From NCBI GenBank assembly GCA_001724265.1, contig MEDY01000018.1, positions 1 through 64,000 on the forward strand: a stretch of DNA of 64,000 nucleotides. The letters are read 5' to 3'. Positions 10,377-55,682 of this stretch are shown one piece after another. This DNA is from Rhizaria sp. SCN 62-66. Taxonomy: Eukaryota. The stretch's first letter is position 1; every line of letters starts with the position of its first letter. Under the pieces are notes generated by a model that made no database searches, had not been told where the DNA came from, and worked only from the letters and a program-made list of their open reading frames with translations. The translations under genes and the position numbers were made by a program.

Positions 10377-13079
10377 ATGTGCGGAAGGGCTAATGTCGTC
10401 CGCACGCCAGAGGAGATCCAACAGCTCGTCGGCGCCCGCCGCGTCCTAGGTCCTGTACGCCAGGCTCCGCGTCAGCCACGAGCTCCGAATGCGAATGCAA
10501 CCGCACCACGGGCGGGTGGCCGCCGCCAGAAGCGCCCGCGCCCTGCTGTCTGTGTGGCTGGAGCCTCTCTTGTTATTAGTACAGCTGCTGCTAGCAAGCC
10601 TGCTTCGTCGTTCCTCTCTGGCCAAGCATCCGCTGCAAACGTGATAGGTGTCACAAATAATGGCGATATTGACCATCACGATAACTATGCACATGAAAAC
10701 ATGCAAGGCGATGGGGCCGCGAGCGCCTTTGCGTTTAGCTTCGACGGCTCGTCTGCAGCGTCCAGTGAAGCTCTGGGCTCAAAGTCACATGACTCGCACA
10801 CTGACAGCGTACAACATACTGCTCGACCTGAAGTCAGCATCAGCACACGCAGGGTCAACGTAGGACCTACACAGCTGGTTCCTGTCTTGTATTGCACTCC
10901 CACTAACGCTAGCGCCGACGTGGACACTCGTGACAGCGCGTCATGCGCAAGTGGCTCTCGCGCTGAAACCGTGTGTGGTGAGAACGAGTTGTCGATGCGG
11001 ATGATGCAGTGGGGGCTCATCACCGGCTACCCGCCCCAGTCCTGGCAGGGCCCGCTGTCGGCGCACCGCCAACACAACGTGCGGACGGATAACAGGGCTG
11101 TAATGACGACCATCATGAACAAAAAGTCGAGCCGCAGCGTGTTTGGCCCACCTCAAATCGTGCAAAACAACACTGTAAACAATTCCACGATGTCACTCTC
11201 GCACTCACAGCCGTTTCCACGGCTCGGGCGCTGTGCCATCATTGTCGACGGCTTTTACGAGTGGCCTGATGCAGAGGCTCCGCTGTACAATCAACACCAC
11301 AATTCGACTGCAATAGATAACAACACCCCCACAACTACGAGCTCCACAACAAGTGCGACCTCTGTGTCCACAACCAGTGCGAGCTCGGTGCAGACTGCAG
11401 TGACTGCTGCACCCAGGCCGATGATGCCGTTCGCGAAGGGCTCGGAGCCGTACTTGGTGCAGATGGCGTCTAAGTACCTGCCAGACCCCTTAGATCCCGC
11501 TTTATTCGTTCCTGAAGACGGCGACAGCGTCACCAACTCGCAAAACTCACAAGACACAATCGGTGATCAGAGGAACAAGTTGACAACCGCGTTTATTGCT
11601 GCAACTGCAGCTCATACTGTGGCCAATTCACAGTCTGATAGGGAAAGTTCTCAACGGAACGGTACGCAACTCTTGGGTGGCGACTAGGAGTGGGCCAAAG
11701 CGTCATTAAGCTGCTCTAGCTCTTCACAAATGCTGCAATACCGCGCGGCGTTAGACTCAGTCGTGACTGGTTTATCAAGTAATTGCATTGGCGCTGACTC
11801 ATCTCGTGCGGCAACTAATGGCGATGTTGAGAATGACAACGGTGGGTACGTTGATTGCGATGGTGACTGTGAGCCTGAGTGGGGAAGTCAAGCCTCCTTT
11901 GCAGCCGTCACTGCTCTCGGAGACAAGGCCCTCACATCCAGCGTCAGTACGTCACTGAAGTTTCCTGAATTATCAACGCAAGAGTTGGGCAGCAATCACA
12001 GGGACTCTGCGATTGCTTCGGACTCTAAAGCTGGTTCGAATTCGAAAGATAGCTCTGGTCCAGTCAATGCTGGCCCCGGACCGTGGACACAGCGCATTCT
12101 CTCTGCGTGCCCCATGTTCCTGGCTGGCGTGTACTCCGAACACGTCTGCCCAGTCACGCAAACAACTCTGCACACTGCCGGCGTGGTCACAACCACCGCT
12201 AACCCGCAGTTTTCGTGGTTGCATCACCGCTCGCCGCTCATTCTCTCGCCGTCGGAGCTCGCGCAGTGGCTTTCGCCGAGTACTAGCGGCGCGGCACTGA
12301 GTCAGATTGTGGGGAAGCAGTGGCAAGATCCACGGCAAGTGCCTGTGCGGGCGTATCGCGTGTCCGCTGCAGTCAATAATCTTGCGCAAATAACAGCGGC
12401 ACGTGGTCAGACTGACAGCGGCAAGAGCAGTGCTAGCGCAGACAGTAATAACAGTGCGGTGACGGAGATGTGCCTGGAGTCGTCAGAGTCGGTGCGGAAG
12501 GCGCGCGCCTTCATTGGAATCGGCCGTTTCTTCAGCCCAACAGCAGTCGAGCGTGCGAGTCGTCAAGACGCTCACATGAGTAGCACAACTGATGCCAGCG
12601 ATGTTGAGGTCAACTCTGAGAGCCAGCCGTATTCTGGTGACAGTGCTGAACGTGGCTTCTCGTTTGATAACGACGGCAATGACAACATCTATGATATGAG
12701 TCGCACCCGTGATGACGAGAGCTTTACGTATGCCTACAACGAAGACGCGAATGGTCACGACGACAACGCGAAAGCGTTTCAGTTTGACTTCAGCGACTTC
12801 GGAAATATTGCCGACACGTTTTCTTCGATCACTGATCTCAACGCTGAGTCGGCTGACGACTGCAGAACGACAGCAGCGCAGACTGCAGCTGGAGCAGCGT
12901 CACTGCGTAGTAAGCGCACGATGGCGTCGACGAGCAGCAACACGCCGTCGGCAAAGCGGGTCACGTTTGCTGACACGTTTAGCGGTAGCAGCGGCAACGG
13001 CGCTTCTGCCCGTAGTTTGAGCGTCGTTGATGATGGTGAGGGCGATGACGATGATGATGACGTTGTCGTGATTAACTAA
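10377..13079 (+). CDS. HMCES: SRAP/HMCES abasic-site processing protein (900 aa, one in-frame TAG at 11685-11687)
   Basis: MCGR N-terminus, NVGPTQLVPV, MQWGLI and RCAIIVDGFYEW lie before the TAG; MFLAGVY, TTTANPQFSWLHHRSPLIL and YRVSAAVNN lie after it in the same frame; ends TAA. Confidence 0.88.
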
Positions 13080-52859: not shown

Positions 52860-55682
52860 GCGTCTGCCGCTGCCTCTGCCGTGGCCGCGGCGACCGGGGA
52901 CGCATCGGCCGCCGCCGCTGCCGCGGTCAAGACGGAGGCGGCGATGGCGATGATGCTACAGGCCGTGAACGCGATCGCGAACCTCAGCCCAAACACCATG
53001 GGGAGCTTTCACTCTCACTCCAACTCCAGCTCGAGCTCCAACGGCGGTGGGATGATGGGCACTCCTGGGAAGCAGAGGGGCTCCATTGGCGGGAACCTGC
53101 TCGCAATGATGATGTCGCCTGCGAAGCACGATAAGAAGGACAAAAAGGACAAGAAGGAGAAGAAGGACAAAAAGGACAAGAAAGACAAGAAGGAAAGCAG
53201 CAGTCTTGGCGCGAGCACTCCCGCCCATGTCCACAGGAGTGAGAGCAAGAGCAAGGATAGTAACCGCAACAGCGGCCGCGCAATGAACGATGATGACGAC
53301 GACGACGACGGCTATGCTGACAACGACGGCGACGATAACCACAGCTCTGATTCGGCTTCTGCCTCTGCTGCCGCCGCCGCCGCTGCTGCTGCTGCTGCCG
53401 CTCCCGCTGTAGCTGTTGTTGTTGCCCCTCAGGCCCCCGCAGTGCGTTTGACCCGCGAAGAGTAGCAAGTCCAGCGCGCTGCCGCCAAAGAGGCCGCCAC
53501 CGCCGCCAAGGCCGCCGCGAAGCTTGCCGCGAAGGAAGCCGCCGCCGCCGCCAAGGCCGACGCGAAGACCGCCGCCAAGGAGGCCAAGGCGGCCGCGAAG
53601 GCCGATGCCAAGGCCGCCGCTGCCAAGGCCAAGGCCGACGCTAAGCAGGCCGCCCGGGAGGCCGCCGCGCAGGCTAAGGCCGAGGCGCGCGCGGCGGCCA
53701 AGGCTGAGAAGGCGCGGGCGCGGGCGGAAGCCAAGGCGGCGGTCAAGGCAGCGGTCGCGGGCACGATTGCTGCTCTTGGTGCCTCGAGAGGGGCTAACAG
53801 CCGCGAGTCGGCGGTGAAAGTGAAGCTTGAGCCCGGCGCGATTGCCATCGCCACTGGTAACAAGAATAGCAAGAGTACGAACGCGAGTGCGAGCCATGTT
53901 GCTGGCTCTGGCTCTGGCCCGATTGCTCCCAGTCGTGAGTCAAATGCTGGCGCTGAGACCGAGACTGAGTCTGAGTCAGACTCTGATACGGCGTCTGAGA
54001 CAGAATCTGACTCTGGGTCAGACTCAGACTCAGACTCTGATTCTGAGGCTGAGGCTGAGGCTGAGGCATAGGCTGAGGCGTAGGCCCCTGCTTCTGCGTC
54101 TGCGGCTGCGCCCGCGAAGTCTGGCTCCGAGACTGTTTCTGATTCCGACTTAGACTCCGAGACTGACTCTGACAGCGACAGCGACAGAGACGCTGACTAC
54201 GTAAGCAAGGCTTCTCGCCACAGCTCGGCCGCCGCCGCCGCGATCGCCGCCGCCGACGCCGCGGTGAACAAGAGCAAAAAGGCCCATACCCAGGCCCAGG
54301 CTAAAGCCAAGGCTATGGCGGACGATAGCGAGACCGCCTCCGACACTGACTCAGACACTGGCTCTGTCTCTGGTGCGAAAAGCTCTAAGGCGGCGGCCGC
54401 CAAGGCCACTGCTGCTGGCAAGAATGTGATCGCAGTCAAGAAGGAGCCTGCTGTTGCAGTTGTGACGGTCGTCGAGCCCAAGGCGAAACCTCTCACCAAG
54501 GCGCAGCAACAGAAGGCTGCCGCTGCCGCTGCCGCCGCTGCGGCTGCAAACTCTGAGACTGAGTCCGACTCGGACTCGGACTCAGAGCCCCAGTCAAAGA
54601 CGAAGGCTGCGGCAAAGACGGCTGGCTTGACTGGTGCAGCTGACGCAGCTGCTGCGAAGCCTAAGACTTCTACTCGTTAGACAAGCAACGTCGCTGTCAT
54701 CGCAAGTCCTGTCTCTAGCTCTGCTCCAGGATCCGCTACTACTGCTGGCTCTGCCTCTGCCTCTGCATCTGCGTCTGCGTCTGCGTCAAGGTCATCAGCT
54801 CCTGCGACGGCGGCTGCGGCTACGCTGTCCGTGGTGATCGCGCACACTGCCGCCGACCCAGTCATCGCCTCTCTTCCCTCCGTGTCCTCTGCGCTCTCCA
54901 CCGGTACACATGGGGGTACACATACCATCCCAGCTGGTCACCTGATTGCGTCGCGCCACATCCCGGGCGTCACCAACTTTTTTGGTCCTTGCCTCAGCTG
55001 GGCGCCGCGCCCTGTTTGGCCAGCCCACGACCGCGCGTCGCTGGGCGCCGTGGACGCGGTGCTTCCCGTCACGTCACACAGCTTCGTCGCAAAGTTCAGC
55101 AGTAGCTCGAGCAACAACAACAACAGCAGCAGTGACAGCGCAGTCGGCTCAAACTCTCACTCTAACTCTAGCTCTAGCTCTAGTGCGAGTGCGCGTGCGA
55201 GTATGGGTGATGGTGGTAATGCAGCCTCGTCTGGTGACGCCGCAGTCGCTGTCGCAGGCGGCGCAGGCGCAGGCGCAGTTTTGCCCCCGTTGGTGGCGGT
55301 GTACCGCGCTGTGACCAACGCCGCCCGCGCCGCTGCGACGGCCCCGTCGGTGGTGGCTTTCCAGCGGGAGCAACAGGCCGGGTACCGCAACCAGGCCGAC
55401 CGCGTCACGGGGTTCATGGCGCGCGCCGCGCGCTCCCACAACAGTTATAACAGCGGCAGTAGCAGCAGCGGCAGCAGCAATGTGAGGCCGGCGACTGGAG
55501 TGACCGTGAGCAGGGGGAAGAAGGTGTCCGGCCAGGAGTACCCGTACGGGCGGCTTGACTTGTTGACGGCGCCGGTGTGGGAGAGCGCGCTGCGGGACGG
55601 CGCCAGTGCGGGCGGCAAGGTGTGGGAGGACGCGAAGAAGCTTATGAGTGCAACGGCGTTGACGCAGGCTCGTAACGAGTGA
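51645..55682 (+). CDS. Ala/Lys/Ser/acidic low-complexity protein, probably nuclear (1345 aa; four in-frame TAGs at 53463, 54069, 54081, 54678)
   Basis: Track ORFs 51555-53465, 53814-54071, 54264-54680 and 54831-55682 are all in one frame, separated only by TAG, with continuous composition (poly-Ala, KKD repeats, AK-rich helix, SD/SE tracts); ends TGA. Confidence 0.72.
52014..52059 (+). repeat. 9-nt KKD coding repeat (second array at ~53130-53195)
   Basis: (GAC AAG AAG)n encoding DKKDKKDKKDKKDKK. Confidence 0.85.

Follow-up and report, generated by a model that had tools for sequence, protein, structure and literature searches.

We examined a stretch of 64,000 nucleotides (positions 1 to 64,000 of contig MEDY01000018.1, deposited as Rhizaria sp. 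SCN 62-66; hereafter the window) for the way in which its genes use the codon TAG. When TAG was read as an unspecified residue (X), open reading frames (ORFs) merged into four open frames, which belong to a SRAP-domain gene, a lineage-restricted gene (P0003), a TKL-like kinase gene, and a low-complexity gene (P0004). These frames contain eight in-frame TAGs (Table 1), and their coordinates, strands, and following bases (G, C, C, C, C, G, G, and A, in the order of the table) agree with those of the original prediction, which had been made from the nucleotides alone. P0003 and P0004 had no Pfam family match at E values up to 0.01. The SRAP family was matched in two stretches of its gene, the better one being residues 604 to 699 of the ORF translation; the domain seems to be interrupted by a long stretch of low complexity, and the TAG at 11685 falls within this insert. 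In P0003, X376 lies 24 residues ahead of G-K-S (residues 400 to 402), a P-loop-like motif common to the homologues. ORF 48955-51003 is probably the membrane part of the kinase, joined to the rest across the AT-rich island at 48804-49003.

Table 1. Genes with in-frame TAG codons, the TAG sites, and other features of the window
Feature	Position	Strand	Details
SRAP-domain gene (PF02586)	10377-13079 (open frame 10284-13079)	+	ends in TAA
TAG in SRAP-domain gene	11685-11687	+	within long insert between matched halves of domain
P0003, lineage-restricted gene	18005-20299	-	ends in TGA
TAG, X273 of P0003	19481-19483	-	A, E, S in homologues
TAG, X376 of P0003	19172-19174	-	Leu in 3/3 homologues
TKL-like kinase gene	46397-51003 (open frame 46397-49069)	-	last ORF ends in TGA
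TAG in kinase	48434-48436	-	between N-lobe and conserved L-C-E-G-G-S-L of TKL-like domain
P0004, low-complexity Ala/Ser/Lys-rich gene	51645-55682 (open frame 51342-55682)	+	ends in TGA
TAG in P0004	53463-53465	+	low-complexity gene
TAG in P0004	54069-54071	+	replaces GAG in (GAG GCN)n repeat
TAG in P0004	54081-54083	+	second TAG within same (GAG GCN)n repeat as 54069
TAG in P0004	54678-54680	+	Ser/Thr-rich stretch
Cation-channel gene, very large, voltage-gated, four-domain (PF00520, PF08016)	21296-39153	-	
Verified intron	31334-31465	-	132 nt, GT...AG, GC 0.34; in four-domain cation-channel gene

The GC content of the window ranged from 0.51 to 0.66 in 4-kb bins. Its long ORFs are rich in low-complexity stretches of Ala, Ser, Gln, and Asn, and its introns are AT rich, 130 to 200 nucleotides in length, and bounded by GT...AG. 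The combination of such introns with long ORFs indicates that the window is eukaryotic nuclear DNA. Introns and spacers are marked by 54 AT-rich islands.

We scored the sequence on both sides of each TAG by codon usage, with five other window genes as the training set (9,159 codons; GC content at third positions, 0.75; no TAG). Frame 0 was the best of the six frames on both sides of seven of the eight TAGs, and the downstream side of the TAG at 19172 gave a near tie (-0.01 versus 0.05). Local GC content at the eight TAGs was 0.51 to 0.69, compared with 0.34 in the verified intron, and all eight lie outside the 54 AT-rich islands. Two coding-scored ORFs abut in frame at nine places in the window. 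Eight of these places are the TAGs, and the ninth is a TGA at 31367, which falls within the 132-nucleotide GT...AG intron listed in Table 1. As this is the sole TGA between coding ORFs, and it is intronic, the claim that no gene model has an internal TAA or TGA held. The curated coding sequence, 17,037 codons in all, held 8 TAG, 0 TAA, and 0 TGA codons, a rarity for TAG like that of the rarest sense codons (ATA, 14; TGT, 31).

The gene models give 15 gene ends in the window, of which eight are TAA, seven are TGA, and none is TAG; three of the models (2-247, 44460-45809, and the end of the leucine-rich repeat gene at 42079) are based on ORF and codon score alone. The original prediction had likewise found no TAG terminator among 15 genes, and only its split (TAA 7, TGA 8) had to be corrected in our recount. 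If TAG normally terminates 20 to 25% of genes, the probability of finding no TAG among 15 terminators is about 0.013 to 0.035. The bias toward TAG among the in-frame stop codons is less striking than it might appear, because GC-rich third positions make CAG, GAG, TCG, and AAG common, so that 56 to 63% of random nonsense changes under the codon usage of the window would produce TAG, and not a third. Under this expectation, eight TAGs out of eight have a probability of about 0.009 to 0.025.

P0003 offered a view beyond the window. An exhaustive profile search of 1.84 billion representatives returned seven matches, comprising two pieces of P0003 itself, four pieces of two paralogues, and one distant homologue. 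The two pieces of P0003 were cut exactly at TAGs by standard-code gene callers. Among 599 pattern matches we found at least three metagenome loci of the family (L001, L002, and L003), and scans of genome contigs and of viral contigs found no further contigs. L001, from a separate assembly, is identical to window positions 18673-21021, including the TAGs at 19172 and 19481. In the L002 paralogue, which is 40% identical, TAGs lie in frame at 1067, 2006, and 2051, and the terminator is a TAA at 2189; GC content is about 0.55 up to this TAA and 0.34 to 0.38 thereafter, which places the TAGs at 2006 and 2051 inside the coding part. The L003 paralogue, at 33% identity, carries TAGs in frame at 1315, 1861, and 1873 and terminates with TGA. 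No TAA, TGA, or frameshift was found in the interiors of L002 and L003. Six TAGs out of six in these two paralogues have a probability of 0.013 under random nonsense, for which the expected share of TAG is 48 to 63% across the window and the paralogues. A variant of the L002 protein with many residue differences (P0111) stops at the same position. P0003 has a conserved N-terminal domain bearing Cys and His, followed by a G-R-D...G-K-S stretch that resembles AAA+ NTPases only weakly; a PDB profile search with the family gave only nonsignificant AAA+-like matches (best E value, 0.058).

The TAG sites at 19172 and 19481 (in L001) and at 48434 (in runs X2, X3, and X4) were compared across assemblies, and contigs of four runs were compared with window positions 41500-56500. 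Contigs from X2 and X3, which look like one data set, have no differences from the window over 47820-49525 and keep the kinase TAG at 48434. X4 represents a strain from a different study, and its contig over 47424-48643 has three differences, none of them at this TAG. We took X4 as DNA because its contigs cross AT-rich spacers and the intron island of the kinase. The database also holds three kinase fragments, derived from no fewer than three contigs, and each of them ends at the residue that precedes the TAG. The region 53463-54678 was not covered by the long pieces listed from any run, because its low-complexity repeats break contigs.

Between the window and a second strain, represented by X4 (DNA) and X5 (RNA), 40 differences are listed over 15 kb, with 7 more beyond these, and there are small indels as well. 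The differences that fall within ORFs in 41500-56500 are synonymous in 13 cases and nonsynonymous in 15, the latter mostly in low-complexity sequence. We looked among the 40 listed differences for TAG/GAG, TAG/CAG, or similar polymorphisms, and none touched a TAG; nor did any of the 40 create or remove a stop. None of the assembled contigs of the X5 poly-A RNA crosses a TAG site. One of them (48175-48433; depth, about 3) ends one base before the TAG codon of the kinase. De Bruijn assemblers break contigs immediately ahead of a base that varies, so the end at 48433 may point to variation or editing at the third position of the codon in that sample; it could also be an accident of low depth.

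We consider it likely that UAG alone has been reassigned from stop to sense in this organism, with UAG translated and UAA and UGA serving as the only terminators. This pattern is the one originally proposed for the window, and it reappears in the six further in-frame TAGs of the two paralogues. Under such a code, ribosomes would insert an amino acid at UAG and translation would end at UAA and UGA only. The decoder may be a tRNA with the anticodon CUA or an efficient near-cognate tRNA, and eRF1 would presumably have lost its recognition of UAG. The rarity of TAG, together with a possible excess of C in the base that follows it, would suit a reassignment that is young or still inefficient.

Several observations weigh against reassignment. 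The curated coding set was cut at TAA and TGA, so its zero counts for these codons are partly circular; the count of abutting ORFs is the noncircular test. TAG is unevenly spread, as five large genes (9,159 codons) have none and 8 of the 14 TAGs known from the window and the paralogues lie in the P0003 family, whose codon usage is atypical. The density of TAG in this family (8 in 2,023 codons) is about 10 times that in the other window genes, and P0003 itself has a GC content of about 0.48 to 0.51, with both GC content and codon score below those of neighbouring genes. At the 14 sites in the window, L002, and L003, TAG is followed by C seven times, by G four times, by A twice, and by T once, and the share of C exceeds the expected 0.23 (binomial P = 0.03). 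C provides the leakiest +4 context for stop readthrough, so its excess is also compatible with readthrough in competition with a release factor that is still active. Homologues aligned at the TAG sites point to no consistent amino acid, whereas a clean reassignment should give one if there are enough sites. No tRNA gene and no Rfam match was found within the 64-kb window, nor does the window contain eRF1. The sample is also small, consisting of one 64-kb window and two short contigs, L002 and L003, which need not belong to the same genome.

A rival explanation is that UAG is leaky or ambiguous: the release factor would still recognise UAG, near-cognate tRNAs or a weak suppressor would read through it often enough for these genes to work, and gene ends would have lost UAG. 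The code would then be caught midway, short of full reassignment, and more than one residue might be inserted at UAG. We regard this as unlikely, although it is harder to exclude than loss of function of the genes. Consistent with leakiness are the extreme rarity of TAG, at the level of ATA and TGT, its concentration in genes of weak codon bias, the C that follows half of the TAGs, and the failure of the aligned sites to fit any single amino acid. The excess at the +4 position is, however, marginal, and it includes a motif duplicated in L002 (G-G-A T-A-G C-G-C A-G-G), which accounts for two of the seven sites followed by C. Termination at these TAGs would cut the kinase at its hinge and three proteins of the P0003 family in mid-domain, which would be wasteful unless readthrough were nearly complete, and TAG is absent from the gene ends (0 of 15, or 0 of 17 with the paralogues).

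If the standard code applied instead, the genes with TAGs would be pseudogenes or nonsense alleles, and the absence of other stops in them would stem from the GC-rich third positions. The high share of TAG expected among random nonsense changes (56 to 63% by window codon usage), the atypical codon usage of the P0003 family, the lack of a Pfam match for P0003 and P0004, and the five large genes free of TAG could all be accommodated in this way. The explanation nevertheless requires that 4 of the 15 window genes and two paralogues be dead and that all 14 nonsense changes be TAG (combined P of about 1e-4), with no frameshift, TAA, or TGA among them. It also sits poorly with the coding-frame signal that is kept past the TAGs (apart from the near tie downstream of 19172), with the coding-level GC content of L002 up to its TAA, with the TAG kept both in the diverged strain X4 and in the much-changed paralogue variant P0111, and with the lack of TAG among the 15 terminators. 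We therefore judge it very unlikely. Least probable of all, in our view, is that the TAGs are removed or changed in the RNA, either by short unrecognised introns or by editing. A-to-I editing turns UAG into UGG in some filamentous fungi, introns in the window often have TAG as their acceptor (two cases in the leucine-rich repeat gene, with others in the EF-hand gene), and the X5 RNA contig stops at the base before the kinase codon. Yet none of the eight TAGs lies in intron-like AT-rich sequence, and the protein alignments run without gaps through the kinase and P0003 sites. The only GT...TAG candidate intron that we saw, at 11685, is 26 nucleotides long and would break the best-scoring downstream frame. 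Editing of UAG to a Trp codon was also considered, and Trp fits no aligned site.

If UAG is indeed reassigned, the residue that it encodes is less clear than the reassignment. In the five PDB alignments printed for the kinase site, the residue is Ser (KSR2 three times and KSR) or Gln (TNNI3K), and in the two nearest metagenome kinases it is Asp, before the same L-C-E-G-G-S-L stretch; the protein searches for kinase relatives returned only the kinase's own fragment and two distant kinases. The site had been described as a Glu/Gln position of the kinase hinge. In the P0003 family, X273 and the L002 site at 1067 are each aligned with Ala, Glu, and Ser. X376 falls within a G-R-D-x-E-L-x-L motif and is Leu in every one of the three homologues, though P0003 itself departs from this motif at another position.

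Over the sites that align with homologues, a crude BLOSUM mixture gave Ser 0.36 to 0.57, Ala 0.27 to 0.29, Glu 0.05 to 0.14, and Leu 0.04 to 0.09. When both repeat TAGs were counted as Glu positions, the same crude mixture gave Glu 0.59 and Ser 0.30. The context of neighbouring residues favoured Gln (0.22), Leu (0.22), and Glu (0.17), with Ser and Ala each below 0.01. Two TAGs of P0004 do replace GAG in a Glu-Ala repeat, as had been claimed, and Glu leads the mixture only if that repeat is counted. The stronger claim that Glu is favoured is not supported in that form, given the Leu at X376, the Ser, Gln, or Asp at the kinase site, and the low share of Glu (0.05 to 0.14) without the repeat. The argument for Glu from an absence of TAG in poly-CAG tracts is weak too, since 3 of the 14 TAGs do have a Gln neighbour. 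On balance, Glu is weakly ahead, with Leu, Gln, and Ser as further candidates, so that Glu is a lead more than a result. If reassignment is granted, Glu might be the residue with a chance somewhat short of even; Leu would be about half as probable, Gln and some other or mixed identity would each come a little behind Leu, and Ser would come last. The full proposal, in which an uncultured lineage known only from metagenomes is at an early stage of reassignment to a code with UAG as Glu and both UAA and UGA as stops, is doubtful as a whole.

Metagenomes of reactors, wastewater, and activated sludge, drawn from several studies, contain DNA matching the window (sampled-word shares, 0.99, 0.87, 0.87, and 0.63), and a poly-A metatranscriptome shared 0.24 of the sampled words. 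Proteins of the window also occur in a protein collection, where the contigs that encode them reach 209,401 bases. The very large cation-channel gene is made up of three ORFs (349, 2,220, and 3,356 codons) joined by introns, with long inserts of Ala, Ser, Gln, and Asn, and it has no TAG codon. Channel homologues with names were at most about 35% identical by blastp; closer relatives were metagenome proteins, the best of which is 45% identical in domain IV. In a quick, unfinished tree of 38 domain IV rows (37 hand-picked from 93 matches, plus the window's own protein), the window protein grouped with metagenome sequences only.

TAG also appears in the window outside coding sequence. It is the acceptor of several introns, at 42351, 43735, and 61786 on the minus strand, twice in the leucine-rich repeat gene and once in the EF-hand/coiled-coil gene, and where exon ORFs begin, such acceptors give the false impression of in-frame TAGs. 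ORF 62196-63788 on the minus strand is closed by a TAG that sits in the AT-rich island at 62177-62300 and is intronic, not a terminator.

Changes in the meaning of UAA and of UAG almost always go together (PMC11687900, PMC5304391). Each independent lineage that splits the two indicates that their coupling is not mechanistic and reveals paths by which a code can change (PMC11687900, PMC5304391). The window, if read correctly, would add a UAG-only case outside the ciliates and in a GC-rich genome. The rarity of UAG here, set against its presence in 78 to 91% of phyllopharyngean genes (PMC11687900), bears on the debate between codon capture and an ambiguous intermediate, and if the reading of UAG as Glu were true, the organism would be at an early stage of reassignment and would offer a natural system for watching the capture of a stop codon. 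There is also a practical consequence, as gene callers that apply the standard code truncate proteins at TAG, and such fragments are already in the database (P0005, P0006, P0007, P0009, and P0105).

The original prediction named several lineages in which UAA and UAG have parted; its list omitted the phyllopharyngean ciliates, Protocruzia tuzeti, and Scotinosphaera (PMC11687900). It also stated that a nuclear code with UAG as Glu and with UAA and UGA as stops was undescribed. We found none in the literature searched, a point that matters only if TAG is Glu, nor did the same searches turn up a wastewater eukaryote with such a code.

Among the described codes, that of Rhizaria sp. exLh (Sainouroidea), in which UAG is Leu and UAA and UGA are stops (PMC5304391), resembles the window in several respects. 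exLh has, and the window would have, a nonciliate nuclear code in which UAG alone became sense, and both terminate with UAA and UGA only (56 and 15 of 71 genes in exLh, 8 and 7 of 15 here). The use of UAG is uneven between gene classes in both (PMC5304391), and site X376 of the window matches Leu in all three homologues. On the other hand, UAG is common in exLh (384 in 71 genes; PMC5304391), while the window has 8 in 17,037 codons; Leu occupies 82 of 86 hyperconserved sites in exLh (PMC5304391), while the sites in the window disagree on Leu; and exLh lives in an insect (PMC5304391), whereas the organism of the window is found in reactor and wastewater metagenomes.

UAG is Gln, with UAA as a stop, in Iotanema spirale and Protocruzia tuzeti (PMC5304391, PMC11687900), and UAG-only reassignment has occurred in phyllopharyngean ciliates once to Leu and twice to Gln (Hartmannula sinica and Trochilia petrani) (PMC11687900). 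The codes with UAG as Gln are UAG-only, like that proposed for the window, and may be compared with the Gln at the kinase site of TNNI3K and the 3 of 14 TAGs with a Gln neighbour; they differ in that Gln is low at the homologue-aligned sites of the window. In the phyllopharyngeans, UAG is found in most genes (the 78 to 91% given above) and UAA is the strongly preferred stop (PMC11687900), whereas in the window UAG is rare and TAA and TGA end similar numbers of genes.

The green alga Scotinosphaera, in which UAG is Ser and UAA a stop (as cited in PMC11687900), is another nonciliate, UAG-only case, and Ser occurs at three homologue-aligned sites of the window and tops the crude mixture. The neighbour context in the window speaks against Ser, however, and the channel tree does not group the organism with green algae. 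Oligohymenophorea sp. PL0344, with UAG as Glu and UAA as Lys (PMC10553269; cited in PMC11687900), is the only described nuclear code that we found in which UAG alone means Glu, which is also the leading candidate here. In PL0344, though, UAA is reassigned and UGA is the sole stop (PMC10553269), whereas TAA ends 8 of the 15 genes of the window, and PL0344 is a ciliate, whereas the window is GC rich, with long contigs and introns of 130 to 200 nucleotides. The window differs from the described codes in the rarity of its UAG codons and in its nearly equal use of TAA and TGA as terminators.

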